A stretch of 64,000 nt of DNA from Flavobacteriales bacterium (lineage in GTDB: Bacteria > Bacteroidota > Bacteroidia > Flavobacteriales_D > JAUILH01): contig CAXRGQ010000016.1 of NCBI GenBank assembly GCA_964230215.1, forward strand, positions 291,982-355,981. Reading direction: 5' to 3'. Shown here piece after piece: positions 39,007-57,165 of the stretch. Below the pieces are notes generated by a model, which worked only from the letters and a program-made list of their open reading frames with translations, had not been told where the DNA came from and did no database searches. Both the position numbers and the translations under genes were made by a program. Within the stretch, counting starts at the first letter, position 1; each line of letters starts with the position of its first letter.

Positions 39007-39079
39007 GATCTCCTAGCTCAGCTGGTAGAGCATATCCCTTTTAAGGATAGGGTCCTGGGTTCGAACCCCAGGGGGATCA
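39007..39079 (+). tRNA. tRNA-Lys (anticodon UUU)
   Basis: Cloverleaf folded by hand. Acceptor GATCTCC/GGGGATC (one G-U pair), D arm GCTC-AGCTGGTA-GAGC, anticodon arm TATCC-CTTTTAA-GGATA, 5-nt variable loop, T arm CTGGG-TTCGAAC-CCCAG, discriminator A. CCA is not encoded. Confidence 0.9.
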
Positions 39080-39089
39080 CGAAACAAAA

Positions 39090-41418: not shown

Positions 41419-44400
41419 TTACTTACGAACTACCACTCTAATAGTTTGTGTTTTGTCATCAGATCTAAACTCTACAAAGTAGATGCCTGATTCGTTAACA
41501 TTCAAGCTAACATCTGTCTGATTTCCAATCACGTTCTGAACATGTACTTCACGTCCTAATGCATCACGAACGATTAGCTGTCCATGATTAACATTTGATA
41601 CAAGTGTAAAGTCACCATTCGATGGGTTTGGATATAAGTTGATAGCCAATCCATCTTGCTCATAAACGCTCACCTGAGTTCCAACAATTACTTGAGCAGT
41701 TGTTGTACAGCCATTATCATCAGTGATAGTAACATCATACGTTCCAGCTTCAAGACCAGTTGGATCTTCATCCGTAGATGTAAATCCGTTTGGTCCAGTC
41801 CATGAGAACGTGTAAGGTGCTGTTCCACCAGTAGCTGTTAAGTCAATTGTTCCATCCATACCCATTAACTCATCAGTAGATGTTCCTGATCCGCTTAGGG
41901 CAGTTGGCTCATTGATTGTTACTGACGTAGTTTCAACACATCCGTTACCATCTGTAATTGTAACCGTATAAGTTCCGGCAGCAACACCAGCAAAAACACC
42001 TGTTGATTGTGCTCCTGCACCTAAGTCAAACGTGTAAGGTGATGTTCCACCAGTAGCTGAAACAGCAAGTTCTCCATCACTTAATCCGTTACATGTAACA
42101 TCCATAGTAGAGTCAATTGCACTAACAATTGCTGTTGGTTCTGTAACCGTAACTGATGTTGAAGCTACACAGCTATTGTTATCAGTAACTGTTACGCTGT
42201 ATGTTCCAGCACCAACACCCGATAAATCTTCAGTTGTAGTTGCTCCTGCATCATCCCAAAGGTATGTTGCAGATGTAGCACCACCATTAAGCACAACGTC
42301 TATTTGAATGTCTCCATTCGCATCTCCGTTACAAAGAAGTGCTAAAGTAGAACTTGCTCCATCAACAGTAATAGTAGGTCCATTAGGATCAGACAATGAA
42401 ACTGTAGTTGTCTCAACACAGCCGTTGTCATCTGTTACTGTTAACTGAATACTTCCAGCTGGCATATCAATTGGATCTTCAACTGAAGATGTGTAAGTAC
42501 CACCATCAGACCAGCTATAAGTGTAGGCTCCTGAAATTGTTCCACCACTTACCGTAACTGAAGCAGTTCCATCAGCTACACCACATCCTGTCGGATTAGT
42601 AGTGCCATCAACTGTGATGGCTATTGCTGTAGGCTCTGTTACAGTAACAGCAGCAGAAGCTGTACATCCGTTGGCATCAGTGATGTCAACATTATATGTT
42701 CCAGCCATTAAGCCAGTTAAATCTTCTGAAGTAGATGCTCCTGCATCATCCCATAAGAAAGAGTAAGCAGAAGTTCCGCCAGTCACTGTTAAGTCGGCAG
42801 CACCTGTTGAAGCACCGTTACAATCAACAGCTGTTTCAACCACAGTACCAGCAAGATCAGTTGTTACAGTTACTATTTGAACATCAGTAGTCTGATTTCC
42901 AGCAGCATCTGTAACCGTCCAAGTTACTGTAGTTGATCCCAGTGGGAAAGTAGCTGGCGCGTCATTTGTTACAGTCTCTCCTGAACAGTTATCGGCAGCA
43001 GTTGGAGAACCAAGTGATACACCTGTTGCAGAACATCCCGCTGCATTTGCAAGCACATTCACTGCTGATGGAGCTGTAATTGTTGGGAATTCATCATCTG
43101 TAATTGTCACATCAAAAGATGCAGAAACAGATTGTCCATTGCCGTCTGTATATTCATACGTAACAGTAGTTGTTCCAATTGGGAATAAAGTACCAGATGC
43201 TTGACCAGCTGTCATTGTACCATTCAATCCAGTACCGTCACAATCATCATCAAATGTAGGATCTGTGTAGTTCACGATTGCACCACATTGACCAGCATCA
43301 ACTCCCATAGACATGTTTGTTGGGGCAGCTGCCACTGTAGGCGCATTATCCTGAACAGTAACTGTTTCAATTGTAGTCATCTCAGACTCACACGCACACC
43401 CAGGTGAACCATACACCCAATCGGTAGCAGGATCCATGTTAGTTAGTGTACCATCAAAGTTTCCAGTGATATCTGAAGCAGTTGTACCCGCGCCATCGTT
43501 AAAGTTGTACGCCGCAATTAAATCTGTCTCAGTACCTGAAATACAGTTATTCATATTTGCTGCAACCTCACTAGCAGTTAGCGGTGAATTCCAGATTCTT
43601 AAATTATCAACATTTCCATTAAATTCTGCTCCGCCCCATGGAACATTACCAATGCTAATTTGACCTGTTCCAGCATAATCAGCACCAGAAACGTCTGCTG
43701 CAACTTGCGTACCGTCCATATATATGGTTCTTGCATTTGTAACAGCATCATAAGTAACTGCATAGTGGTGCCAGTTCATATCCGTAACTGGGCCTGCATC
43801 CAAGTCATTTGCCCAGAAAGCAAACGTAAAGTTGTTAGAGCCTCCTCTAAATCCAATATGCAAAGCTTGGTTTGTTGTGTTTACGCCATTGTATTGACCA
43901 ATAACAAAGTCATTTCCACCAATAGCTGAACGTTTAGCCCAGAACTCTATTGAGAACGATTGATTTGCAAAATCTACTCCTGTTACATCTACTTGCTCAT
44001 TAGCACCGTTGAAATCTAATCCAAGTGTGTTAGTTGCTAGCACATTATAAGATGTAGTCGCTGACAGGTTACCAGTATTCATGTTCAATGCACTACCGTT
44101 TCCAGCAGTTGGTCCTTCAATAATCGCGTCATTCGAATCATCTCTTAAGAAATAGAATGCTCCGTTTTGAGATGAACCTAAATCAATAGTAGTAGCTGTG
44201 TTAGGGCAAACAGTTGATGAAGCAGCAGTCACAGTCTCGTCATTCAACGGATCAATAGTAACAGTAGCTGTTGTACTCATATCCATTGAACATGCTCCAC
44301 ATGTATTTGCTCCAGCAACCCAACTTGTCGCAGGATCAAGTAACGTCAACGTTCCGTGGTTTCCACCAGCAAAGTCAATTACTTGTGTAGAGTTCACACC

Positions 44401-46434
44401 TGACTCAAGGCTGTAGTTAGCAACTAAACCTGCATCATTATTATCTACGCATTTGTCCATGTATTCTTTGATTTGGTAACTAGAACGTCCAGTATTCCAT
44501 AATCTAACGTTATCAATAGCACCATTGTGGTGAGAATGATCAACGTCAGCTGCACCTATTGTTAATGGAGCTGCAGAAGAGTTTGGCGCAACAGCATAAG
44601 TTGTTGAACCACTCAACTCGCCATTTATATATAAATGACAATCATTTCCAACTCTTGTACCTGCAATATGATACCACTGCCCAGGCACTACGCTTCCAGC
44701 AGCTGTTATGTTCATGTTAGCTGATCCATACATCTGCCATAGTACATCACCACTTTGGTTATACCACAAGCCATACGTTCTGTCTGAGCCATTTCCTTTT
44801 CCAACAATACGTACCCAGTCCGGTACATATGCGTCAATGTATATCCAAGCTTCAACTGTGATGTCTCCTGTAATGTCAAACTCGGGTGCGTTTCCACAAT
44901 CAATATATCCATCAACACCATCGATTTGAATTGCATCTGAAGATCCTCCAGCGTTATGTGCAATTACATTATAAGTAGTAGTTGCTGAAATGGTTCCAGT
45001 CTCTAAATCAATAGAACCACCGTTACCAGCCACTGGTCCGTCAACAATCATATTTGTTGCGTCATCTCTTAAGAAGTACTCAACTCCAGTTTCAGAAGAA
45101 GCTAGGTTAATATTAGTTGCTCCGTTACAAATGATATTGCTTGTACCTGCAGCAACAGTCTGATCAACAGGTGTGTTTGCTACCGAAACAATAACTTCTT
45201 GTCTATCACTTTCACATCCACTACCATCCACTTGAGAAACTAAGTATGTTGCTGTACCAGCAGAAGCTGTGTTTGGCGTAGGTGCCGTAGTTGTATAACC
45301 TGCACCGTATGTAGTTGTATAGAATCTAAGTGATGTGCCTGTTCCTGAAAGTGTTCCCGAAAGCGGAGATGCTGGCTCACCAACACAATAGTATTGCGAA
45401 CTTGCAGCCGGTGCAGCTGGAGGTGTACCTGATGAAATAACATGCAATGTTCCACCAACTGTGTGCCATGTACTTGCACTTGATTGCATTACTACTGACG
45501 TAATTGGAATATAACTTGTCAAATCAATATTATGTGGTGACGCAAACGTTCCAATGTTACTTCCGTTAACGAAAAGCGTGTACGAACCAGCAAACCAAAT
45601 TGAACCATTCCATATGTTCGCAGCACCCTCAAGGTATACCTGAGATTGACAAGAACTAATATGGTTAAAATCGATTTGTGCTATTTGACCACCATTAACA
45701 CCAGTACCTCCATTATACACCACCTGAGGATCACATGGCAATCCACCAACCCACATTGGGTTTGACACTAGCGTTCCATCATAGCCATTTCCAGTTCTAT
45801 CAACTAATGTCGATCCTGAACCTGACTCGAAATCATACTGAGCAAGTAATCCACCAGGATTGAAGTCAAAACAAACGTCTTTGGTCATAGCGATTTGCAA
45901 GTCACTTCTCGTAACATTCCAAATTCTCACTCGATCAATCATACCGTCCATATACTCAGAACCAGTTAAACTCCCTCCGATTCGGAAATTATTTGATGTT
46001 GCGGGAAATGCGCCAGATACCGCTGCTGTATTCTCAAGGGCGCCGTTAACGTATACCTTAAGATTGGTTCCGTCCCACGAACCAGCAATGTGCGTCCACG
46101 TTCCAACTGGAATAGTAGTTGTCCCGGTCACATTTTGAAAACCAGAGCCGTTATCAACCCAGAAGCGAGCAAAACCATTGTCAATTCTCAGCAGAAACTG
46201 CATTCCACTATTATAGTTACCAGCTATGGTCCTATACGTACCTGAGCTTTCCAAGTTAACCCAACCTTCTACTGTAATTGCACTTGTTCCAGTGAATACT
46301 GAATTTATACTAGTACCGGCATCAACGTACTGGCCGGAACTCTCTTCAAAGTCCAATGCGGACTGACCGTAGGATAATTGCCAACAACCCAAACTGAGCA
46401 TGACTATCCCGATTTTTTTTAGATGTTTTTTCAT
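41419..46434 (-). CDS. giant secreted cell-surface protein: LamG/ConA-like jellyroll domains, HYR domains, SprB-type repeats and a T9SS type-A C-terminal sorting domain
   Basis: Signal peptide. Three or more LamG-like signatures (MIDRVRIWN, AIDNVRLWN, NVDNLRIWN). HYR-like GTTTVTYEYTD/GSTTVTWTVTD. Five CNG...GG.(S/A)PY.(F/Y).W...G.Y.V.(I/V)TD.NGC repeats. C-terminus NLYPNPSNGDFTL...GIYFVEF...IRVVVRK. Confidence 0.8.
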   Translation of the reverse strand: MKKHLKKIGIVMLSLGCWQLSYGQSALDFEESSGQYVDAGTSINSVFTGTSAITVEGWVNLESSGTYRTIAGNYNSGMQFLLRIDNGFARFWVDNGSGFQNVTGTTTIPVGTWTHIAGSWDGTNLKVYVNGALENTAAVSGAFPATSNNFRIGGSLTGSEYMDGMIDRVRIWNVTRSDLQIAMTKDVCFDFNPGGLLAQYDFESGSGSTLVDRTGNGYDGTLVSNPMWVGGLPCDPQVVYNGGTGVNGGQIAQIDFNHISSCQSQVYLEGAANIWNGSIWFAGSYTLFVNGSNIGTFASPHNIDLTSYIPITSVVMQSSASTWHTVGGTLHVISSGTPPAAPAASSQYYCVGEPASPLSGTLSGTGTSLRFYTTTYGAGYTTTAPTPNTASAGTATYLVSQVDGSGCESDRQEVIVSVANTPVDQTVAAGTSNIICNGATNINLASSETGVEYFLRDDATNMIVDGPVAGNGGSIDLETGTISATTTYNVIAHNAGGSSDAIQIDGVDGYIDCGNAPEFDITGDITVEAWIYIDAYVPDWVRIVGKGNGSDRTYGLWYNQSGDVLWQMYGSANMNITAAGSVVPGQWYHIAGTRVGNDCHLYINGELSGSTTYAVAPNSSAAPLTIGAADVDHSHHNGAIDNVRLWNTGRSSYQIKEYMDKCVDNNDAGLVANYSLESGVNSTQVIDFAGGNHGTLTLLDPATSWVAGANTCGACSMDMSTTATVTIDPLNDETVTAASSTVCPNTATTIDLGSSQNGAFYFLRDDSNDAIIEGPTAGNGSALNMNTGNLSATTSYNVLATNTLGLDFNGANEQVDVTGVDFANQSFSIEFWAKRSAIGGNDFVIGQYNGVNTTNQALHIGFRGGSNNFTFAFWANDLDAGPVTDMNWHHYAVTYDAVTNARTIYMDGTQVAADVSGADYAGTGQISIGNVPWGGAEFNGNVDNLRIWNSPLTASEVAANMNNCISGTETDLIAAYNFNDGAGTTASDITGNFDGTLTNMDPATDWVYGSPGCACESEMTTIETVTVQDNAPTVAAAPTNMSMGVDAGQCGAIVNYTDPTFDDDCDGTGLNGTMTAGQASGTLFPIGTTTVTYEYTDGNGQSVSASFDVTITDDEFPTITAPSAVNVLANAAGCSATGVSLGSPTAADNCSGETVTNDAPATFPLGSTTVTWTVTDAAGNQTTDVQIVTVTTDLAGTVVETAVDCNGASTGAADLTVTGGTSAYSFLWDDAGASTSEDLTGLMAGTYNVDITDANGCTASAAVTVTEPTAIAITVDGTTNPTGCGVADGTASVTVSGGTISGAYTYSWSDGGTYTSSVEDPIDMPAGSIQLTVTDDNGCVETTTVSLSDPNGPTITVDGASSTLALLCNGDANGDIQIDVVLNGGATSATYLWDDAGATTTEDLSGVGAGTYSVTVTDNNSCVASTSVTVTEPTAIVSAIDSTMDVTCNGLSDGELAVSATGGTSPYTFDLGAGAQSTGVFAGVAAGTYTVTITDGNGCVETTSVTINEPTALSGSGTSTDELMGMDGTIDLTATGGTAPYTFSWTGPNGFTSTDEDPTGLEAGTYDVTITDDNGCTTTAQVIVGTQVSVYEQDGLAINLYPNPSNGDFTLVSNVNHGQLIVRDALGREVHVQNVIGNQTDVSLNVNESGIYFVEFRSDDKTQTIRVVVRK
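41690..42840 (-). repeat. five tandem ~75-80-aa SprB-type coding repeats inside the giant gene (approximate borders)
   Basis: Protein-level periodicity (…TVTGGTSAYSFLWDD…, …VSGGTISGAYTYSWSD…, …LNGGATSATYLWDD…, …ATGGTSPYTFDLG…, …ATGGTAPYTFSWTG…), each unit ending in TD(A/D/G/N)NGC…V(T/S)…P. Confidence 0.5.
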
Positions 46435-47974: not shown

Positions 47975-48598
47975 ATGATACAGTTTAGATTTATAGCTTT
48001 GGTAATCATTGTTTTGAGCATTTATTCGTGCGGGAATACCGAGTCGAGTAATTCAAACTCTGAAGAGGCGTCTCCTACAAAAGACACCACGGCTATTGAG
48101 CATACAGATACGGTTATCACAAGTCAGCCTAAAAAACTACTATCTCCAAGAAAAATTGCAAGAGGCAATACCGTAGTTGGTGAAATTGAAGTTGATTATG
48201 GTGCGCCTAGTGTAAGAGGACGAAAAATATGGGGTGAGCTTGTGCCTTATGATTCGCTATGGCGTGCTGGAGCTAATGAAACTACTGCTATTACCTTTGA
48301 AAACAACGTTTCGATTGGAGGGACAAATTTGCAAGCAGGTACTTATGGCTTCTTTGTATACCCAACAGACTCTGGTAAATGGACTATTATTCTAAACACA
48401 AAATGGCATAAAGACAAACACGATATGTGGGGCACCTATGGTTATAACCCTGAGCATGATGTTTTGCGTTATGATGTTACCCCGATTAAAAATAATAGCC
48501 AGCAAGAGACACTACTATATGAAATCTCAAATAATGCCTCAATTCAGTTAATTTGGGATTCATTAACAGTTGAAGTACCTGTTCATCAAGCTAAATAA
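47975..48598 (+). CDS. DUF2911 domain-containing lipoprotein
   Basis: Lipobox SIYSCG. YGAPSVRGRKIWGELVPYDSLWRAGANETTAITF...GTYGFFVYP...WTIILN is the typical DUF2911 signature. Confidence 0.7.
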   Translation: MIQFRFIALVIIVLSIYSCGNTESSNSNSEEASPTKDTTAIEHTDTVITSQPKKLLSPRKIARGNTVVGEIEVDYGAPSVRGRKIWGELVPYDSLWRAGANETTAITFENNVSIGGTNLQAGTYGFFVYPTDSGKWTIILNTKWHKDKHDMWGTYGYNPEHDVLRYDVTPIKNNSQQETLLYEISNNASIQLIWDSLTVEVPVHQAK

Positions 48599-48619
48599 AT
48601 AGTCAATTTGGTGCACTCT

Positions 48620-48634
48620 TTTTCAAAATGAAAA
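48620..48634. promoter_or_regulatory. palindrome TTTTCA-AAA-TGAAAA, candidate enhancer (UAS) for the sigma-54 activator
   Basis: Perfect 6+6 inverted repeat about 110 bp upstream of the -24 GG at 48737. The same arms recur upstream of the second sigma-54 promoter. Confidence 0.4.
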
Positions 48635-48735
48635 TAATTTAAAGTTGTTTCAATAATAATACCTTAGCACTCATTCGTCATAACTAACTGTATACCTACA
48701 TCTTACCTCCCTCTCACCGAAAACCTCACATTTGA

Positions 48736-48751
48736 TGGCACAAGCTTAGCA
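48736..48751 (+). promoter_or_regulatory. sigma-54 (-24/-12) promoter TGGCAC-AAGCT-TAGCA
   Basis: GG (48737-38) and GC (48749-50) are separated by exactly 10 nt. 22 nt upstream of the ATG at 48773. Confidence 0.7.
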
Positions 48752-48772
48752 GTTGAATGAAAAACTGCAATT

Positions 48773-49192
48773 ATGAAAACAACTTATTTTAATATAGCCA
48801 TCTTAGACGATAGTGACTTCTACAACCATTTAATCACAAAGCAAATTAGTAGTTATGCAGAAGCATTATCGACCTATCACAACGCTGTGATCACTATCGA
48901 ATCATTTACCGATCACTTGAAATTCAAGAAATATTTGCAAGCCAATTTAGACGTAGTCATTTTAGACTACTACTTAGGTGGAGGTTATACTGCACTTGAT
49001 ATGTTGCATGAGATCGAAAATGCATCTCCTGATTGCCAGGTCTTAGTCCTATCACAGCAACGTAACATGTTTACTGCTCACAGAACCATAACAGAAGGAG
49101 CAAGCCAATTCATACATAAATCGGATAAATATGCATTGCCGAAAGCCTGCTTTTTTATAGAAAATCAATTATCTAAAAAAACAAGGGCATAG
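48773..49192 (+). CDS. stand-alone response regulator receiver protein
   Basis: REC signature: ILDDSD, acceptor VVILDYYL, VLVLSQQ (T/S position) and IHKSD (Lys). No output domain. Confidence 0.8.
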   Translation: MKTTYFNIAILDDSDFYNHLITKQISSYAEALSTYHNAVITIESFTDHLKFKKYLQANLDVVILDYYLGGGYTALDMLHEIENASPDCQVLVLSQQRNMFTAHRTITEGASQFIHKSDKYALPKACFFIENQLSKKTRA

Positions 49193-49229
49193 AATTGTCA
49201 ATCAATTATTTGTTGTAAATTATTAAGCC

Positions 49230-51662
49230 ATGGTATTAAAGAAATCCAAATTCAAATTTGAGTATAGAATTATCTTATTCATGTTAACAGCATTGTCACT
49301 AATCTGTGTTAGTGGAATATATACCTATAGTAAGATCAGCAAAACGGTTGAAAACATACAGTTGGAAGCTGGTCAGGATCTTAGGTTGGCGTTAGCGGAA
49401 TCAATTCAAAGTGAATCTTTGGAAGCTGAGAGTAATGTCAAATCTTTCAACATATCGGAAGACTCGAGTTTTATACGCAGCTATTATATGAATGTAAAGA
49501 AGGTAGAAGAAAAACTCATTTATTTAGACGAGATTCAAACAAACAGCCCCATATTTTCATTCAATGTAGATAGCTTAAAATCCTTACTAAACCGGAAATT
49601 TGACGTACTTGAACAATTAATGAGTTTGCGAGCGGACTTTCGGAATGAAATATCTATTGACAATATAGCAGACAAAATTGAATTAAAATCACAAGCAGCT
49701 ACGCTAAACAGTGAGGAGAAAGGACTCTTAAAACGAATCTTTAAAAAATCCACAAACAGTAAAACCTCTACCGTTGTTGAGTTTCGTGACGTTAACAGGG
49801 AGCTAGCAAAGATGAAACTACGTGAGGACAGTTTAAGAGAACAGTTAAGAACTAAAGAATTCGAGTTGCTAGTTACGGACATTGAGATTTCTCATACCAT
49901 AAAGAATATGATAGACAAGCTTGAATTATCATCCAAACAACAATTGCAATATCAAGAGGCAGCATTAGAAGAACAGATGATCAGTATTAATAGGCAAATT
50001 GCGATATTCTGTATTGCAATGTGTGTAATGCTGTTGTTCATGTCATACACCATTTACAATTATGTGCGCAAAAACAAGAGCTACCGAAAAGCGTTAAGAC
50101 TTGCAAAAATTCAAGCAGAAGACCTTGCGGTTACTAAGGAACGATTCTTATCTAACATGAGTCATGAGATAAGAACCCCGATGAATGCTATTGCCGGGTT
50201 TACGGATCAAATTGCTCAAGGAAAACTTAATGAAAGTCAACGAGAACATGTTGGAATGATTCAAAAATCAATTGAACACCTACTCTACCTTATTAATGAC
50301 GTTTTAGATATATCAAAGCTAGATGCTGGAAAACTTAAACTAGAGAAAATTGCATTTAACTCGAGAGACACTATAACTGAAGTGGTTTCTTTTGTAAAAC
50401 AGATAGCGAAAGACAAGGACATAGATGTAAGTTTGGACATTGATGATAATGTTGCTCCCATTTTGATTGGGGACCCATACAGATTGCGTCAAATTTTGCT
50501 AAATGTTATGAGTAATTCAGTAAAATTCACTGACAATGGCTCAGTAGAACTCGTTGTGAACAAATGCGTAAAATCCGACCAACATACCATAAGATTTGAA
50601 ATAAAAGATACTGGTATTGGTATGAGTGACCATCAAATAAATAAAGTGTTTGAACAATTTGAACAAGCTGAAGTAAGTACAACTAGAAATTATGGTGGTA
50701 CTGGTCTTGGACTATCAATAACAAACAAACTTGTTGACTTACATGAAGGTAAAATCTTCCTAAAAAGTAAATCTGGTGAGGGAACAACTGTAATTATCGA
50801 GTTACCATATGAAATTGGCAGTCCATCTGATTTAACTGTCGAAAAATCAAATGCTGATAAGCTTATGGTTAAAGATGGCTTGAATATTTTAATTGTAGAT
50901 GACGCAGAGTTTAACAGAAAACTACTCACTACAATATTCGACAAACACCCTGTAAACTATGACACCGCTGATGATGGCATTAAAGCCATTGAAGCCGTAA
51001 AAAAGAAAAAATACGATCTTATACTTATGGATATTCGTATGCCTAAAATGGGCGGTATTGAGGCAACAAAAGCGATAAGAAAACTAGAGCAAAATGATTC
51101 ACAACAGGTGAATATTATTGCGCTGACAGCTGCTGTGATGAGAGAAGACGTTGAATCATATTATTCCGCAGGTATGAATGGTTTCTTGTCCAAACCAATT
51201 ACGGAAGATAAATTAATCAAAGAACTGTCTCATATACTATGTGAATCACCTGAGAGTAATGGAGTAAGAAAAGAAATTGAATCAACTAGCGAAACCGAAC
51301 AAATAGCATCAGCATCTGTAAATTTTGATCAGTTAAAAGATATAAGTAATGGTGACCGGGCATTCTATCTTGACATGCTTGAAACATTTATTTCTGGCAC
51401 CAATGAAGGGATTGAAAACATTGAAAATGCGCTTGAAATTGAAGACTGGAATGCCTTAGCCAACTATGCGCACAAAATTTCATCTCCATGCAAACACATG
51501 GGAGCTGAAGGCATGTATCAAATTCTTAAAAGACTAGAACACAACTGCAGAAACGGTGAAAACCTTAGCAATTGTTATGGATTAGTCAATAAACTAAAAT
51601 CACAATCTGAAGTAGTTCTCGGACTGGTTAAAATTGAAAAAGAAAACACAAACTCGATCTAG
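49230..51662 (+). CDS. hybrid sensor histidine kinase (2 TM with ~220-aa periplasmic coiled-coil region, HisKA, HATPase_c, REC, HPt)
   Basis: H-box FLSNMSHEIRTPMNAI. N/G boxes (LLNVMSNSVKFT, DTGIGM, GGTGLGLSI). REC (ILIVDDAEFNR...LILMDIRMP...SKP). C-terminal HPt (AHKISSPCKHMGA). Confidence 0.9.
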   Translation: MVLKKSKFKFEYRIILFMLTALSLICVSGIYTYSKISKTVENIQLEAGQDLRLALAESIQSESLEAESNVKSFNISEDSSFIRSYYMNVKKVEEKLIYLDEIQTNSPIFSFNVDSLKSLLNRKFDVLEQLMSLRADFRNEISIDNIADKIELKSQAATLNSEEKGLLKRIFKKSTNSKTSTVVEFRDVNRELAKMKLREDSLREQLRTKEFELLVTDIEISHTIKNMIDKLELSSKQQLQYQEAALEEQMISINRQIAIFCIAMCVMLLFMSYTIYNYVRKNKSYRKALRLAKIQAEDLAVTKERFLSNMSHEIRTPMNAIAGFTDQIAQGKLNESQREHVGMIQKSIEHLLYLINDVLDISKLDAGKLKLEKIAFNSRDTITEVVSFVKQIAKDKDIDVSLDIDDNVAPILIGDPYRLRQILLNVMSNSVKFTDNGSVELVVNKCVKSDQHTIRFEIKDTGIGMSDHQINKVFEQFEQAEVSTTRNYGGTGLGLSITNKLVDLHEGKIFLKSKSGEGTTVIIELPYEIGSPSDLTVEKSNADKLMVKDGLNILIVDDAEFNRKLLTTIFDKHPVNYDTADDGIKAIEAVKKKKYDLILMDIRMPKMGGIEATKAIRKLEQNDSQQVNIIALTAAVMREDVESYYSAGMNGFLSKPITEDKLIKELSHILCESPESNGVRKEIESTSETEQIASASVNFDQLKDISNGDRAFYLDMLETFISGTNEGIENIENALEIEDWNALANYAHKISSPCKHMGAEGMYQILKRLEHNCRNGENLSNCYGLVNKLKSQSEVVLGLVKIEKENTNSI

Positions 51663-51697
51663 TCTGAATTCAATTCTTTATTACTACCTTTAATTTG

Positions 51698-53038
51698 ATG
51701 ACGGATAAAGCCTTTACAGTATTTGTTCTTGAAGACAATGAATGGTATAACAAACTACTGGTTCATAATATTCAATTGAACCCAGAGTTAATCGTTAAAA
51801 GTTATACGAATGGAAAAGATTTGATGAACGCCATTCATGAATCTCCTAATTTAGTTACACTAGATTATCGATTACCAGACACTACTGGAGAGAAGCTGTT
51901 AAAAGAAATAAAATCTGCTAATCCCAATATTGAGGTTGTGATAATTTCTGAACAAGAAGACATTGAAACTGCCGTTGAACTATTGCGTCTGGGTGCATAT
52001 GATTATTTCGTTAAATCGGATGATATTAAAGATCGGCTTCACAACACCATAAACCATCTAATTAATAACGATGGTCTAAAAAAAGAAGTTGAAAGCCTTC
52101 GTCGTGAAGTAGCACGGAAATATCAATTCGACAAAAGTATCATAGGCGAAAGTCCTGCTCTTCAAAAAATTGGTAAGTTGCTTGAAAAGGCTGTTAATAC
52201 ATCCATCACTGTCTCACTTACTGGCGAAACAGGGACTGGGAAAGAAGTGATTGCTAAATCCATACATTATAATTCTAACAGAAAAAGTAAACCCTTTGTA
52301 GCCGTTAACATGGCAGCCATACCTGCTGAATTAATAGAAAGCGAATTATTTGGTCATGAAAAAGGTGCATTTACCGGGGCCAATACACGAAGAATCGGCA
52401 AATTTGAAGAAGCCAACGGAGGCACCTTATTCCTGGATGAAATTGGTGAAATGGACATCAACTTTCAAGCAAAACTACTGCGAGCTCTTCAGGAAAAAGA
52501 AATTGTCCGTGTTGGTAGTAATTCACCTGTCAAAATTGATAGTAGAATCATAGTCGCTACAAACCGAGATCTCCAAGAAGAAGTAAAAAATGGAAATTTT
52601 AGAGAGGATCTCTACTACCGTTTAATTGGTTTGCCAATACACCTGCCCCCACTAAGAGAACGCGGGAAGGATGTATTGTTACTTGCTAATTATTTTATCG
52701 ATAATTTCTGCAAGTCGAATAAAATGAGCACAAAAAAGCTTAGCAGTGATGCCAAGAAAAAGCTGTTGAGCTATGATTTTCCTGGTAATATACGTGAGTT
52801 AAAATCAATAATAGAGCTTGCTGTTGTATTAGCAGATAATGATGACATATCAGACACAGACCTTAATCTTAATACATCTAATCCACTCCCCAACCTCATT
52901 AGCAAGAATATGACTCTGAGAGAGTACAGTAGGGAGATTATTGGCATCTATATGGAGCGATTTAACAAGGACACTAAGAAAGTTGCTGATGCGCTTGATA
53001 TCGGTCAAACGACAGTCTATCGCTATTTAAAAGACTAA
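51698..53038 (+). CDS. sigma-54-dependent response regulator (NtrC-family enhancer-binding protein: REC, AAA+, Fis-type HTH)
   Basis: REC (VFVLEDNE...[10 protein letters not shown]). Walker [15 protein letters not shown] loop (EKGAFTGA). [17 protein letters not shown]-terminal [19 protein letters not shown]. Confidence 0.9.
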
Positions 53039-53062
53039 ACTAAGGTCTTATTTTCCTCTTTA

Positions 53063-53085
53063 GTCATTTTCATTTTGAAAATGAC
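53063..53085. promoter_or_regulatory. palindrome GTCATTTTC-ATTTT-GAAAATGAC (core TTTTCA-TTT-TGAAAA), candidate UAS
   Basis: 9-bp perfect inverted repeat about 95 bp upstream of the -24 GG at 53168. It shares the TTTTCA-N3-TGAAAA core with 48620-48634. A weaker ATTTC-N7-GAAAT lies at 53087-53103. Confidence 0.45.
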
Positions 53086-53166
53086 AATTTCATTCTGGGA
53101 AATCCCGCTCCCAACCCCAAAACACTAAACGTTCATTTTCAGCGACTTAAGGTCGCTTATTTGCCG

Positions 53167-53182
53167 TGGCACATATATCGCA
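53167..53182 (+). promoter_or_regulatory. sigma-54 (-24/-12) promoter TGGCAC-ATATA-TCGCA
   Basis: GG (53168-69) and GC (53180-81) are separated by exactly 10 nt. 33 nt upstream of the ATG at 53215. It lies inside the ORF-track N-terminal extension, which is therefore rejected. Confidence 0.7.
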
Positions 53183-53214
53183 ATTACTATAAGCGAATCA
53201 GTAAACTAAAGAAA

Positions 53215-53643
53215 ATGAAGAATATAAAAATAGTAATTGTTGAAGATGACCTTTATTACAATAAGGCACTCACTAAATATGTACAAACCATTTGTAACGA
53301 GAAAACTTATAGTGGACTCAAGTTTGAAATATGTTCTTATCTGAACGCACATGACTGTATTGAAGCCATGGATGATAGTATGGATATTATGATTCTTGAC
53401 TATTTCCTAGTTAATCATGACGAAGAAGATGTGTTAACTGGTGAAGATGTGCTAAAAGAACTCAAAACATACGCACCTAATTGTAAAGTAATTGTCGTGA
53501 GTGCTCAACAAAGTGCTTCTAAAACTGCACACTTAATGCGCAACGGCATCTATGATTACGTTGATAAAAATGTGAGTTCGAAAAACAGAGTTGGTGCTTT
53601 GCTACAAAAATTATTGCGTACGGAATTTTTACAACCAGCCTAA
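53215..53643 (+). CDS. stand-alone response regulator receiver protein
   Basis: REC signature: IVIVEDD, acceptor IMILDYFL, VIVVSAQ and YVDKN. No output domain. Confidence 0.8.
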   Translation: MKNIKIVIVEDDLYYNKALTKYVQTICNEKTYSGLKFEICSYLNAHDCIEAMDDSMDIMILDYFLVNHDEEDVLTGEDVLKELKTYAPNCKVIVVSAQQSASKTAHLMRNGIYDYVDKNVSSKNRVGALLQKLLRTEFLQPA

Positions 53644-53669
53644 GTATAACTTTTAAAATACCAGATAAA

Positions 53670-54344
53670 ATGAAAACTACACGAATAAAACTATTAATAG
53701 CCGGATTTATAAGTCTGGTGAGTTCTGAAATTTTTGCACAAAGCTCAGGATTTCATTACGGTGGACGTTTTGCCCTTGGTGAGAGTAAGCTAATAATGGA
53801 TGGCGCCACTGGAGAAGAAAGCAAGCTCCTGATTAGTGGGGGTATTGCTACTAACTACCAATTCAACCGCATAGTGGGTATAAAAGCTGACTTTTTATTG
53901 ACTGGCAAGGGAGGTAAATACAGCGGTACCACTTACGAATCAGGTCCACTAGGAGAAACAGCTTATCACTATCAGGATAATTACAAACTCTTATATGGTG
54001 AGCTTCCAATTATGGGTAAACTAGCTCTACCACTAGGTGAGAACTTACAAGTAGAAGCTTTCGCCGGACCAAGCATCAACTTTAATTTAATTGGCTTACA
54101 AGATCGTGTGTATGATAATAGAAATTATCATGAGGACAATGGCTACTATGATGCTAGGATGCAGAACCTTGAGACTGTTCATTACGGAATGGTGTATGGT
54201 GCAGGAATAGACGTACTAAACGAAGGCGGCAGAACTCTATTTCTAGATTTTAGATTGAGTAGATCCATGGGGACCATTGGTACAATTAACGGATATGAAA
54301 CCTCAAGTAACTACTTTATGGTCGGTGCCGGCTATATGTTTTAA
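53670..54344 (+). CDS. outer-membrane beta-barrel protein (small porin-family/OMP_b-brl-like)
   Basis: Signal peptide (LLIAGFISLVSSEIFAQ), alternating amphipathic beta-strands, C-terminal VGAGYMF. Confidence 0.65.
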   Translation: MKTTRIKLLIAGFISLVSSEIFAQSSGFHYGGRFALGESKLIMDGATGEESKLLISGGIATNYQFNRIVGIKADFLLTGKGGKYSGTTYESGPLGETAYHYQDNYKLLYGELPIMGKLALPLGENLQVEAFAGPSINFNLIGLQDRVYDNRNYHEDNGYYDARMQNLETVHYGMVYGAGIDVLNEGGRTLFLDFRLSRSMGTIGTINGYETSSNYFMVGAGYMF

Positions 54345-54375
54345 TCCTAATTACTAACTAATTAAACATAATATT

Positions 54376-54891
54376 ATGAAACGAATTACAAGTATATTAT
54401 TCGCCCTATTTATAAGTATAACTGGGCACACACAAGATGGTTTAGCCATTGAAGGTCAATCTTACAAAACAGCTATAGGACTGAGAGCGGGAGGAACCTC
54501 CGGACTTACTGTAAAACACTTTGTTGGCAATAGAGCCGCAATTGAGGGTATTGTAGGTGTCTGGAATAGAGGATTGAGCGCAACAGTACTATACGAACGT
54601 CACATAAATGCCTTTGATGTTTCAGGACTTAACTGGTACTACGGTGGAGGTGGACACATTGCCTTTAGAACAGGTCACTATGTAGGACTTTATCATGAAA
54701 ATCATCCGCATTACTACCGCTATAATGAAAGCATGACCCTAGGTGTTGATGGTGTTATAGGGCTTGAATACAAGGTAAGAAACGCACCGTTTGCATTCAG
54801 TCTTGACTTTAAACCATTTATAGAAGTAAACTCAGAATATGGAGCATGGACAGGTTTAGATCCTGGTTTGGGTATAAAAGTAACCCTATAG
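54376..54891 (+). CDS. small outer-membrane beta-barrel-like protein
   Basis: Signal peptide (ILFALFISITGHTQ) and a G/aromatic-rich strand pattern (GLRAGGTSGLTVKHF, WYYGGGGHIAF, GVDGVIGLEYK). Terminator follows. Confidence 0.5.
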   Translation: MKRITSILFALFISITGHTQDGLAIEGQSYKTAIGLRAGGTSGLTVKHFVGNRAAIEGIVGVWNRGLSATVLYERHINAFDVSGLNWYYGGGGHIAFRTGHYVGLYHENHPHYYRYNESMTLGVDGVIGLEYKVRNAPFAFSLDFKPFIEVNSEYGAWTGLDPGLGIKVTL

Positions 54892-54914
54892 ATTCCATGT
54901 AGTTTGTTTGTTGG

Positions 54915-54945
54915 ATCCCCAGATTTATGCTGGGGATTTTTTCTT
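54915..54945 (+). terminator. rho-independent terminator
   Basis: ATCCCCAG-ATTTATG-CTGGGGAT followed by TTTTTTCTT. Confidence 0.75.
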
Positions 54946-55015
54946 CGTAACATACTGAATGCCTAAAATCAATACTGGAAAGTAACCTTTACATTGTATC
55001 TCAGTACAAGCTTAA

Positions 55016-55969
55016 ATGCAATCAGTCTGGATTACTCGCATACTATTACTCTTGATATTTCAAGTTCAGCCGCTTATTTCTTATTGTCAGTTAAATGAAG
55101 TAAAGAATTTTGGCAAGAATCCGGGAAACCTAAAGATGTACATGCATATGCCTAAAATTTTCATCGATTCTACTGCATTACCGCTTGTAGTTGCCTTACA
55201 TGGATGTTATCAAGATGCCAGTGAAATTGCCAATGAGAGTGGATGGAATTCGCTTGCCGATAAATACGGTTTTGTGGTTATTTATCCTGAACAAAAAAGA
55301 GTGAATAATGGGTACAAATGCTTTAACTGGTTTAGATCAGCCGACAATAAGAGAGATAAAGGTGAATCCGCCTCAATAAAGGAAATGATTGATTATACTA
55401 TAAATGGTTCTCTTATAGATACTAGTAGAATTTACATTTATGGATTGTCTGCAGGAGCAGTTATGACGGTTCAAATGTTGGGTAACTATCCCGAATTGTT
55501 TAATGCTGGTGTAACCCTTGCTGGTGCACCCTATAATAGTGCAAATAACTCAATGGAAGCCATGAAAGCCATGATTAATGGAATTGATAAAGACTCGACT
55601 GAGTTAACAGCAGGAATGAACGCCGAAAAATATCCTAAACTTATCATTGGTCATGGTACGGCAGATAATGTGGTAGAGTATGACAATTCATTAGTTTTAC
55701 TTGCTCAATGGTGTGCGCTACACAAGATTAAATCATCCCCAAAAACGGAAGAATGTAACTTTATGATGAATGAAAATGTATGTAGATTTGCATACGGAAA
55801 TCAGGATGTTATCTTTTATAGATATTTAAATATTGGACATGTATTACCTGTGGATCCCGGTGAAGGCGAATTTAATGGAGGACATATTGGTCGGTTTGCG
55901 AAAGATTTTGATTTTTTCTCGACTTACTACATAGCCAAAGATTTACAACTAATCCCAGATTCAGAATGA
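55016..55969 (+). CDS. secreted PHB-depolymerase-family esterase (alpha/beta hydrolase, LpqC-like)
   Basis: Signal peptide. LVVALHGCYQDA...GWNSLADKYGFVVIYPEQ...CFNWF. Nucleophile elbow GLSAGA. Confidence 0.75.
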   Translation: MQSVWITRILLLLIFQVQPLISYCQLNEVKNFGKNPGNLKMYMHMPKIFIDSTALPLVVALHGCYQDASEIANESGWNSLADKYGFVVIYPEQKRVNNGYKCFNWFRSADNKRDKGESASIKEMIDYTINGSLIDTSRIYIYGLSAGAVMTVQMLGNYPELFNAGVTLAGAPYNSANNSMEAMKAMINGIDKDSTELTAGMNAEKYPKLIIGHGTADNVVEYDNSLVLLAQWCALHKIKSSPKTEECNFMMNENVCRFAYGNQDVIFYRYLNIGHVLPVDPGEGEFNGGHIGRFAKDFDFFSTYYIAKDLQLIPDSE

Positions 55970-56625
55970 GACGACTTTATATACTAGTCATATTAGGTTT
56001 TATTAGCAATAATATTGCAGCACAAGACAGCCACTTAGGTGCATGGTACATTTACTTTGGCGATATTAAAGTCAAAGAGAAATTTCATATTCATTATGAG
56101 GCACAATACCGGAATTATGATATGATGGGTGATTTAGAACAGTTATTATTGCGCACTGGGATTGGCTATGATATTAACAATCATCATCAAGTACTTCTTG
56201 GCTATGGCAATATAACTGCGGAAAACTACACAGGGTACTTTGATGAAAAAACACGGACTAATGAAAATAGGATTTTCCAACAATACATAGGCAAACATAA
56301 CCATGGCAGATTTTCATTTCTTCATAGAGTAAGGTTTGAACAGCGGTTTTTTAAGAATGATTTCTTAACCCGTTTTAGGTATTTTATTGCACCAAAAATT
56401 GCTCTAAATAACAAAGCTTTTGACGATAACACTGTATACTTGAGTCTCTACAATGAAATATTCATTGGAGGGCGTGAAGATTATCAATTCAATATAAACC
56501 GTGTTTACGGAGGAGTTGGATACAAACTCAATTCAAAGCTTAAATTTGAAATTGGATATATGAATCAAATGTTTAAATTGTTTAATAGAGATCAGTTAAA
56601 TTTTATTTGTGCACTAAACTTATAG
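55966..56625 (+). CDS. DUF2490 domain-containing (outer-membrane-like) protein
   Basis: Signal peptide. GAWYIYFGDIKVKEKFHIHYEAQYRNYD and the repeated R.R(Y/F) pattern are typical of DUF2490. 4-nt overlap (ATGA) with the esterase gene. Confidence 0.65.
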   Translation: MRRLYILVILGFISNNIAAQDSHLGAWYIYFGDIKVKEKFHIHYEAQYRNYDMMGDLEQLLLRTGIGYDINNHHQVLLGYGNITAENYTGYFDEKTRTNENRIFQQYIGKHNHGRFSFLHRVRFEQRFFKNDFLTRFRYFIAPKIALNNKAFDDNTVYLSLYNEIFIGGREDYQFNINRVYGGVGYKLNSKLKFEIGYMNQMFKLFNRDQLNFICALNL

Positions 56626-56628
56626 AAA

Positions 56629-57165
56629 ATGACACGCATATTTTTATTAATTGCCTTATCATCTATGCTTTTACAATCTTGCAGAAAAGCAGATAGATTG
56701 ACCCAATTTAATGTACAATACACAAGTACAGCTACAATATCGAGCTCTGCCACAGTGAGCGTGCCTTTTGTAGTTATTACACCGGATGTTGAAACGAATT
56801 CGGAAGCAACTTTTGCGGTGAACGACACGAGAAAAGACAAGATTCAAGAAATACAATTGACTTCATTAAACATACAAATTACAAACCCTCAATCACAAGA
56901 CTTCAATTTTCTTAAAGAAGTGGAAATATTTATTAATGCAGATGGGCTAAGTGAGATTTTATTGGCTAGCAAGTATAATCTTCAAAACACCAATACACAG
57001 TATTTAGAACTTGACGTAAGTGAAAACGACTTTCAAGAGTACATCAAAAAGGAAGAGTTTACTCTGCGCGTGAGAACTGTAACAGATGAGGCATTGCTAA
57101 ATGATGTTGACATTGAAATAAACAGCGATTTCTGGGTGAACGCCAAGCTAATTGGCAAAGCCTAA
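56629..57165 (+). CDS. hypothetical lipoprotein
   Basis: Lipobox MLLQSC. Starts 3 nt after the upstream gene. No recognisable domain. Confidence 0.5.
   Translation: MTRIFLLIALSSMLLQSCRKADRLTQFNVQYTSTATISSSATVSVPFVVITPDVETNSEATFAVNDTRKDKIQEIQLTSLNIQITNPQSQDFNFLKEVEIFINADGLSEILLASKYNLQNTNTQYLELDVSENDFQEYIKKEEFTLRVRTVTDEALLNDVDIEINSDFWVNAKLIGKA

Follow-up and report, generated by a model that had tools for sequence, protein, structure and literature searches.

A probable self-contained sigma-54 phosphorelay cassette in Bacteroidota with predicted outer-membrane outputs

In a 64,000-nucleotide stretch of DNA from a Flavobacteriales bacterium (GenBank assembly GCA_964230215.1, contig CAXRGQ010000016.1, positions 291,982 to 355,981 of the forward strand; hereafter the window), six open reading frames (ORFs), all on the plus strand, encode a single-domain response regulator receiver (RR1), a hybrid histidine kinase (HK), an NtrC-family enhancer-binding protein (EBP), a second single-domain receiver (RR2) and two predicted outer-membrane proteins (OMP1 and OMP2). 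We consider it probable that these genes form a self-contained, autoregulated sigma-54 phosphorelay, arranged in two transcription units, that remodels the cell surface. The module is conserved in at least two orders of Bacteroidota, and its mechanism is of the textbook enhancer-dependent two-component type.

Genes and domains of the cassette

The placement of the six genes, first proposed in an earlier note on this DNA, agrees with the ORFs and Pfam domains found here (Table 1). Independent gene calls in assembly GCA_041255245.1 (contig JBETBM010000007.1) give the same products, of 810, 446, 142, 224 and 171 amino acids; RR1 fell outside the loci fetched, and the comparison covers the other five genes. 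Genes within a unit are separated by 26-37 nucleotides, and the EBP and RR2 genes by 176 nucleotides. The terminator that the same note had placed after OMP2 was recovered by terminator scan and by folding energy: its stem (54913-54939) has 10 pairs, five of them G-C, is followed by a T run and folds at -14.7 kcal/mol (z = -3.1). Together with motifs that are unique in the window, the gene gaps and the terminator support the predicted division into two sigma-54 transcription units.

Table 1. Features of the cassette in window coordinates (nt, nucleotides; aa, amino acids)
Feature	Position	Strand	Description
Unit 1 predicted activator palindrome	48620-48634		TTTTCAAAATGAAAA; centre 110 nt upstream of P1 GG
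Promoter P1, sigma-54 type -24/-12	48736-48751	+	TGGCACAAGCTTAGCA; predicted start ~48761; GG 36 nt before RR1 ATG
RR1	48773-49192	+	Single-domain receiver, 139 aa; Pfam PF00072
HK, hybrid (unorthodox) histidine kinase	49230-51662	+	810 aa
EBP, NtrC-family enhancer-binding response regulator	51698-53038	+	446 aa; start in ORF list is TTG at 51695
Unit 2 predicted activator palindrome, distal	53067-53081		TTTTCATTTTGAAAA; centre 94 nt upstream of P2 GG
Degenerate proximal half of tandem site	53087-53101		ATTTCATTCTGGGAA; 2 mismatches; 20 nt after distal; centre 74 nt from GG
Promoter P2, sigma-54 type -24/-12	53167-53182	+	TGGCACATATATCGCA; predicted start ~53192; GG 47 nt before RR2 ATG
RR2	53215-53643	+	Single-domain receiver, 142 aa; first gene of output operon
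OMP1	53670-54344	+	224 aa; PF13568 outer-membrane beta-barrel; signal peptide; ends ...GYMF
OMP2	54376-54891	+	171 aa; small barrel; no Pfam or NCBIfam model
Intrinsic terminator closing unit 2	54913-54947	+	GGATCCCCAG...CTGGGGATTT then TTTTCTTC

For OMP2, the absence of a hit refers to limits of E <= 0.01 (Pfam) and E <= 0.001 (NCBIfam). The kinase runs from a first transmembrane segment through a helical, CHASE3-like periplasmic domain and a second transmembrane segment to HisKA (H312), HATPase, receiver (D601) and histidine phosphotransfer (HPt; H748) domains, and hydropathy locates the hydrophobic segments near residues 13-33 and 252-278. HisKA, HATPase_c, Response_reg and Hpt all exceed their Pfam cut-offs, and the N-box (425-433), G1 box (460-465) and G2 box (489-495) can be located, which unites the H-box histidine, HATPase boxes, receiver aspartate and HPt histidine of an unorthodox kinase in one polypeptide. 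The full-length architecture aligned in 56 of 58 orthologues. Its sensor scores as a sub-threshold CHASE3 domain (26.7 bits against a cut-off of 28), and the periplasmic domain has a sole match among PDB sequences, 3va9 (E 0.23), too weak to point to a ligand. None of the named NCBIfam sensor equivalogs considered (BarA, TorS, ArcB, RcsC, LuxQ) is reached, the best being BarA with a score of 403 against 890.

The EBP carries Response_reg, Sigma54_activat and AAA_lid_14 domains and a C-terminal helix-turn-helix (HTH) in Pfam. Its AAA+ domain (PF00158, E 1.6e-71) has a Walker A motif GETGTGKE at 176-183, the motif FLDEIG at 245-250 and, as the earlier note had seen, an intact GAFTGA loop (223-228); the loop reads GAFTGA or GSFTGA in 56 of 58 orthologues. 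The receiver (PF00072, E 1.5e-16) has the residues E12, D13, D56 (in LDYRL), S84 and K106, and the HTH lies at 435-444, with weak HTH matches over residues 428-447. These AAA+ motifs, receiver residues and C-terminal HTH, with -24/-12 promoters at the targets, place the protein in the NtrC family. Its nearest solved relatives are Aquifex NtrC4 (4l4u, E 2e-92) and NtrC1 (1ny5, E 1e-88), and it scores below the NCBIfam equivalog cut-offs for NtrC (385 against 558.6), AtoC (376 against 714), LuxO (361 against 800) and ZraR (330 against 760).

Both single-domain receivers are intact in their key residues, which are D12, D13, D65 (in LDYYLG), S94 and K116 in RR1, all five retained in 25 orthologues, and D11, D12, D62 (in LDYFL), S96 and K118 in RR2. 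The closest paralogue of RR2 in the window is the receiver of the EBP (30% identity, E 8e-19), and RR1, RR2 and the EBP receiver resemble each other more than they resemble the HK receiver. The acceptor context LDY(Y/F/R)L that had been noted earlier in three receivers is indeed common to RR1 (LDYYL), the EBP (LDYRL) and RR2 (LDYFL), as against MDIRM in the HK receiver; among orthologues, RR1, RR2 and extra receivers have LDYYL and the EBP has LD(Y/F)RL. The shared D-Y-x-L context fits a scheme in which all three draw on the same HPt domain, and the single-domain receivers may modulate phosphoryl flux to the EBP.

Promoters and palindromes in the window

Two TGGCAC-N5-T(A/C)GCA elements and a common palindrome about 100 bp upstream of both units had been reported previously, and both motifs proved specific to the cassette within the window. 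The pattern TGGCAC-N5-TNGCW occurs at exactly two sites in the 64 kb (48736 and 53167), where shuffled sequence leads one to expect 0.13 and none of 100 shuffles reached two, and TTTTCA-N3-TGAAAA likewise at exactly two (48620 and 53067), where 0.04 are expected. Measured from the palindrome centre to the GG of the -24/-12 element, as throughout, the spacings are 110 nucleotides in unit 1 and 94 in unit 2. Relaxed patterns gave no further palindrome-plus-promoter pair in the window, and they brought out the degenerate second palindrome at 53087. Both promoters have GG-N10-GC and lack the second T of TTGC. A Bacteroidetes sigma-A type -7 box (TAnnTTTG) was sought in the two intergenic regions and was found in neither.

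The unit 2 palindrome lies within a perfect 10-bp hairpin (53063-53085; GTCATTTTCA TTT TGAAAATGAC), 25 nucleotides after the EBP stop codon, that would fold as RNA at -10.6 kcal/mol and has no U tract; the unit 1 palindrome folds no better than shuffled sequence. We considered that the unit 2 palindrome might be a mere terminator and rejected this, as the U tract is missing and the core palindrome is conserved among relatives while the extended stem is not. The hairpin could also attenuate read-through from P1.

Conservation in relatives

Conservation was examined in the best 80 loci of 416 OMP2 relatives, obtained by an alignment-based scan with one genome per species (L001-L080, combined length 1.45 Mb), among which the best OMP2 identity to the window protein is 58-60%. 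A synteny survey of these loci, as suggested by the earlier note, shows in 59 of the 80 an EBP orthologue of 53-67% identity on the same strand as OMP2 and under 3.5 kb upstream of it, and a full-length hybrid kinase precedes the EBP in 58 of those 59. Kinase, EBP and OMP2 are the invariant core of the cassette. The hosts belong to the Flavobacteriales (Vicingaceae, Crocinitomicaceae, Parvicellaceae, Crocinitomix), the Cytophagales (Ekhidna, Marinoscillum, Reichenbachiella, Cyclobacteriaceae) and unclassified Bacteroidota, and include the cultured Ekhidna lutea DSM 19307, Marinoscillum furvescens DSM 4134, Reichenbachiella agariperforans DSM 26134 and Crocinitomix algicola. The Flavobacteriales-type versions have both RR1 and RR2, joined in the Vicingaceae by two extra receivers, and the Cytophagales versions have neither RR1 nor RR2.

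The motifs are conserved along with the genes. A strict TGGCAC-N5-TTGC pattern failed on most close relatives and was relaxed after inspection of the intergenic regions, where the -12 element is mostly T(T/G)G(A/T) and a TGGYAY-N5-T.G element follows the palindrome before RR1, RR2 and OMP2. Conservation of promoter and palindrome at orthologous loci, on which the earlier note had let its reading depend, is borne out by 107 palindrome-plus-promoter pairs in the 80 loci, against none in the same loci block-shuffled. The pairs precede OMP2 (42 loci), a DUF4382 lipoprotein gene (25), RR2 (20), RR1 (10) and a Cbp1-family gene (3). As in the window, the palindrome can also directly follow the stop codon of the preceding gene. 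At positions that the search left unconstrained, T precedes GG in 77% of the 107 promoters and stands at -15 in 68%; the G preceding the -12 position was set by the search pattern. The 47 nucleotides that separate GG and ATG at P2 are the modal distance among these promoters.

Spacings in the relatives fall into classes of 63, 74, 84, 94, 109 and 130 nucleotides, separated mostly by steps of 10-11 nucleotides, as expected for phasing on one face of the helix. The window spacings (74 and 94 in unit 2, 110 in unit 1) match the classes of the orthologous promoters: 93-95 nucleotides is the commonest class before RR2 and OMP2, 108-111 nucleotides precedes RR1 and DUF4382 operons, and both tandem palindromes 20 nucleotides apart and the 73-76 nucleotide class are common. 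In the Cytophagales, DUF4382 is the first gene of the kinase/EBP operon, which carries a palindrome and promoter of its own. Since the kinase/EBP operon has its own sites in both orders, autoregulation appears conserved, and the positive autoregulation proposed in the earlier note gains support from these predicted sites.

Three genome bins labelled Henriciella pelagia, Clostridia and Comamonadaceae (L019, L045 and L073) also carry the Bacteroidota-specific OMP2 gene; their labels are probably binning errors in public metagenome-assembled genomes.

The regulator that probably reads the palindrome

Cytophagales loci have TTCTCA-N3-TGAGAA (C-type) in place of TTTTCA-N3-TGAAAA (T-type), and this change follows the recognition helix of the adjacent EBP. 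All 19 loci whose EBP has a GQTTVYR helix carry T-type sites, and of the 25 with a GQSTIYR-type helix 21 carry C-type sites only, three are mixed and one is T-type only. The window EBP, with GQTTVYR and T-type sites, obeys the rule. Of the evidence available, this covariation points most strongly to the cassette's own EBP as regulator.

The T-type palindrome has other users. In metagenomic contigs of other Bacteroidota, matches listed from a scan for the palindrome-promoter pair include tandem TTTTCA-N3-TGAAAA sites with a sigma-54 promoter before kdpF/kdpA and before a divergent gene for a fused trehalose-6-phosphate synthase/phosphatase. The EBP beside these loci shares no more than 37-38% identity with the window EBP and carries the helix IGLTTLYRK, whose TT, paired with a T-type site, fits the TT-to-T recognition rule. 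As this EBP serves the same palindrome, the palindrome alone does not name its regulator. Among the matches listed, two of 80 loci are the present cassette, and most are kdp loci, trehalose loci or matches lacking a downstream ORF; the last include a repeated group resembling a conserved coding sequence. The kdp loci (L096, L098, L102, L110, L121-L123, L131, L134, L135, L139 and L165) have the order site and promoter, 31-amino-acid ORF, second short ORF (possibly kdpF) and KdpA. Of the trehalose loci (L092, L127, L129, L130 and L154), L127 has the site before the divergent trehalose-6-phosphate synthase/phosphatase gene and a GH15 trehalase-like gene. Together these look like a sigma-54 osmotic and potassium regulon in other Bacteroidota.

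Output proteins

OMP2 has at least 331 homologues, the named taxa all being Bacteroidota, of which 120 are listed without functional name or Pfam annotation; the window protein itself has no Pfam or NCBIfam hit at the limits given above. The family alignment has 31 invariant positions. A hydrophobic N-terminus ending ...TGHTQ|D indicates a signal peptide, and almost every member ends in F, the window protein in L. An AlphaFold2 model has eight strands (mean predicted local distance difference test (pLDDT) 85, predicted template modelling score (pTM) 0.77), and Foldseek finds its best matches in the OmpA transmembrane domain, NspA, OmpX, OmpW and PagL (entries 2jmm, 1qjp and 1p4t), at probability 1.0, template modelling scores of 0.52-0.67 and 10-16% identity, with weak E-values (3e-3 to 5e-2). 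By this model OMP2 would be a small eight-stranded barrel. The loop between strands 5 and 6 (residues 97-121, window 54664-54738) is long, modelled with low confidence and variable in the family, with Tyr at 21% against 6% overall and Arg at 15% against 4%; some members are rich in His there. By the usual eight-stranded topology, this Tyr/Arg-rich loop would face outward.

OMP1 matches PF13568 over residues 22-200 (40 bits against a cut-off of 27). Its orthologues lie 3' of RR2 in L005, L010 and L016 and 3' of the EBP gene in L030. When the OMP1 and OMP2 profiles were compared, the probability reached 66% for a match confined to the N-terminus; we treat the families as separate, since no relationship between them could be demonstrated. 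The earlier claim of two barrels is carried for OMP2 by the eight-stranded model and for OMP1 by PF13568, the single-sequence AlphaFold2 model of OMP1 being uninformative (pLDDT 31).

Clusters in relatives are richer. They include a DUF4382 lipoprotein (55 loci), a coiled-coil lipoprotein (55) that exceeds the NCBIfam cut-off for the Cbp1 collagen-adhesin family, PF13568 barrels (25) and an HExxH lipoprotein (17), as well as DUF4142 and an OmpA-family protein; the Cbp1 collagen adhesin has been described (PMC3949742). Searches of the window by tblastn for the DUF4382, Cbp1-like, HExxH, DUF4142 and OmpA-coiled-coil proteins found none of them, which makes the local cassette a reduced version. 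The claim that the only outputs are two outer-membrane proteins thus holds for the local cassette of this genome and fails for relatives, where further envelope genes are added. The products predicted to be driven by the system are all envelope or surface proteins.

Proposed mechanism and alternative explanations

Judging from domain content, the CHASE3-like domain of the kinase would read a periplasmic or envelope signal, and phosphoryl groups would pass from H312 to D601, to H748 of the HPt domain and on to D56 of the EBP. The activated EBP would bind the tandem palindromes about 74, 94 and 110 nucleotides upstream of the GG of the two promoters, and its GAFTGA loop would drive open-complex formation by sigma-54 RNA polymerase. 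P1 would then yield RR1, kinase and EBP in a positive autoregulatory loop, and P2 would yield RR2, OMP1 and OMP2, ending at the terminator at 54913. On the same domain grounds, RR1 and RR2 would most likely compete for HPt phosphoryl groups, RR2 as negative feedback and RR1 as a buffer or threshold. The output would be an altered protein composition of the outer membrane or cell surface, and in relatives the same regulator would also drive the DUF4382, Cbp1-family, PF13568 and HExxH lipoprotein genes. The earlier description of P2 as a feed-forward output does not hold up well: RR2 is predicted to be induced together with the outputs and would more plausibly exert feedback by competing for phosphoryl groups.

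Several observations weigh against this scheme. The covariation of helix and palindrome may stem from one or few evolutionary events. The T-type palindrome is served by a different EBP at the kdp and trehalose loci, and cross-talk with a paralogous EBP in this genome is possible. C is canonical at the -12 position, where most of the orthologous promoters have another base (A 41%, C 28%, T 17%). Autoregulation from sigma-54 promoters only would need basal transcription, for which possible read-through from the DUF2911 gene upstream is the one candidate found. That RR1 and RR2 serve as phosphate sinks is conjecture. Finally, rpoN is absent from the 64-kb window, as judged by Pfam on ORFs of 400-500 amino acids and by a six-frame search for the RpoN box.

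In seven Ekhidna genomes, an ORF of 477-479 amino acids that lies some 8 kb downstream of the cassette does contain an RpoN-box motif, RRT[VIL][ATS]KYR (L042:17847-19280, with equivalents in L046, L047, L048, L059, L061 and L066), and so lends indirect support to an rpoN gene accompanying the cassette.

Among the alternatives, the one that survives best, and that we still judge unlikely, is that RR1 and RR2 are the main outputs, as diffusible effectors like CheY, DivK or CpdR acting for example on gliding motility, proteolysis or another kinase, with the outer-membrane proteins secondary. Such a role would suit the retained active-site residues, the conservation of both receivers throughout the Flavobacteriales versions, the two further receivers of the Vicingaceae and the position of RR2 as first gene behind the output promoter. 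Yet the Cytophagales, which have neither receiver, keep the kinase, EBP, OMP2, palindrome and promoter, which marks the receivers as accessory to a conserved core, and the closeness of RR1 and RR2 to the EBP receiver, including its acceptor context, fits competition for the HPt domain.

A second alternative, which seems to us quite improbable, is that another regulator, such as a paralogous EBP of the Kdp/trehalose type, binds the palindromes, and that the adjacency of EBP and OMP genes is incidental or only partly relevant. The identical tandem sites and sigma-54 promoters before kdpF/kdpA and the trehalose gene, beside an EBP of 37-38% identity, speak for it. Set against them are the tracking of the palindrome variant with the helix of the adjacent EBP over at least 40 loci, an EBP gene that directly precedes the target in 59 of the 80 loci and in different orders, and the short distance, some tens of bases, between EBP stop codon and palindrome; nor was a kdp-type EBP or kdp gene seen in the window.

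That the motifs arose by chance or are structural, as AT-rich hairpin terminators, with the genes transcribed from sigma-A promoters, is suggested by the AT-rich genome and by the terminator scan flagging the unit 2 hairpin after the EBP stop, but this is effectively refuted by the conserved, phased pairs absent from shuffled loci, and the rarity of both motifs in the window, the unit 1 palindrome with its ordinary folding and the missing TAnnTTTG boxes leave it a negligible chance.

The autoregulated phosphorelay thus stands as our preferred reading. As a bolder extension, which we put forward tentatively and regard as doubtful, the kinase, EBP and OMP2 module, with the DUF4382, Cbp1-family and PF13568 genes of relatives, might constitute a phylum-specific sigma-54 programme for envelope or surface stress, a functional counterpart of the proteobacterial Cpx, Rcs or Zra responses with OMP2 as its hallmark effector, whose DNA code may be common with the Kdp/trehalose regulon. 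If true, this common code would suggest a common ionic or osmotic trigger.

Neighbouring genes

The cassette is preceded by a DUF2911 gene (47975-48598), homologues of which adjoin the cassette in L028 and L035. On the other side, 1.7 kb 3' of OMP2, lies a gene for a putative lipoprotein of 178 amino acids without Pfam match (56629-57165), with homologues in L077 and L080 that belong to the OMP2 gene cluster; a PHB-depolymerase-type esterase gene and a DUF2490 protein gene occupy the interval between (55016-56625). Neither palindrome nor sigma-54 promoter was found in the window at the DUF2911, esterase, DUF2490 or lipoprotein genes. Further upstream are a repetitive surface protein of 1671 amino acids (41419-46434, minus strand) and an S51-peptidase-like protein with a type IX secretion C-terminal sorting domain (PF18962; 46596-47888, plus strand), which fit a Bacteroidota chromosome having a type IX secretion system, and a lone tRNA-Lys (39007-39080).

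Significance and relation to the literature

Conserved but so far uncharacterised, the cassette belongs to a well-understood class, and with a standard mechanism the gain lies in annotation and in a route to the physiological role rather than in a new principle. Signalling for envelope stress and surface remodelling is poorly understood in Bacteroidota, where most sigma-54 activators have no assigned targets. Here a complete regulon hypothesis is open to testing: it covers the sensor and relay, the activator, its binding site with a protein-DNA specificity pair, and the promoters with their targets. OMP2, a widespread family of outer-membrane proteins for which databases have no model, is now delimited, and the covariation of T or C in the palindrome with TT or ST in the helix offers a way into DNA reading by the Fis-type HTH domains of EBPs. 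A comparative study has proposed that sigma-54 controls the bacterial exterior (PMC3162934), and the module is not described in a survey of sigma-54 regulons from 2025 (PMC12316311). Our literature searches turned up no paper that treats either the cassette or the OMP2 family.

Comparison with known systems

Within the phylum, mapped sigma-54 promoters of Flavobacterium psychrophilum precede genes for envelope proteins, a chaperone, an OmpA-like lipoprotein and exported proteins of unknown function, and three EBPs of that species are without assignment (PMC9723704). Neither the present cassette nor the OMP2 family is listed in that paper (PMC9723704), and there is no Flavobacterium orthologue among the 80 best OMP2 loci. 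The Kdp/trehalose regulon resembles the cassette in its tandem site, its TGGCAC-N5-T(T/A)GGCA promoter and its receiver-AAA+-HTH regulator with a TT helix, but that regulator is the distant EBP described above, its targets serve potassium uptake and compatible-solute synthesis, and no OMP2, RR1 or RR2 genes lie nearby.

As for the output, the OMP2 model resembles the OmpA transmembrane domain, OmpX/Ail, NspA, OmpW and PagL in its eight antiparallel strands, its signal peptide and the alternation of conserved charged residues along the strands. It differs from these barrels in its low identity to them, a family-specific NWYYGxGGH strand and the Tyr/Arg-rich loop 3, and unlike OmpA it has no periplasmic OmpA_C domain.

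Among the signalling proteins, BarA, TorS and ArcB have the same HisKA-HATPase-REC-HPt order (REC, receiver) as the window kinase, and Aquifex aeolicus NtrC1 and NtrC4, the best solved full-length relatives of the EBP, have its domain order and GAFTGA loop but unrelated targets and partner kinases; the receiver of the window EBP may act in either of two ways on the ATPase, which is repressed by the receiver in NtrC1 and activated by it in NtrC. In the LuxQ/LuxU/LuxO system of Vibrio a hybrid kinase also relays phosphoryl groups through His, Asp and His to a sigma-54 EBP, LuxO, whose structure (5ep0) matches the window EBP at E 2e-84; there, however, the HPt function resides in a protein of its own, the targets of LuxO are small RNAs and the sensor domains are of other kinds. 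The equivalog cut-offs for BarA and LuxO are both missed (403 of 890 and 361 of 800).

In its logic the cassette appears closest to ZraSR-ZraP, a sigma-54 two-component system for envelope stress in Enterobacteria. There, too, an NtrC-family regulator activates sigma-54 promoters for its own operon and for a small envelope protein, and the AAA+ and HTH regions of the window EBP match those of ZraR (1ojl, E 1e-73). The two differ in that ZraSR comes from a different phylum, the window EBP is no ZraR equivalog (330 against 760), ZraS is a classical kinase lacking receiver and HPt, and the Zra system has no extra single-domain receivers. Its output ZraP is a periplasmic, chaperone-like protein, where the cassette described here would instead direct outer-membrane barrels.

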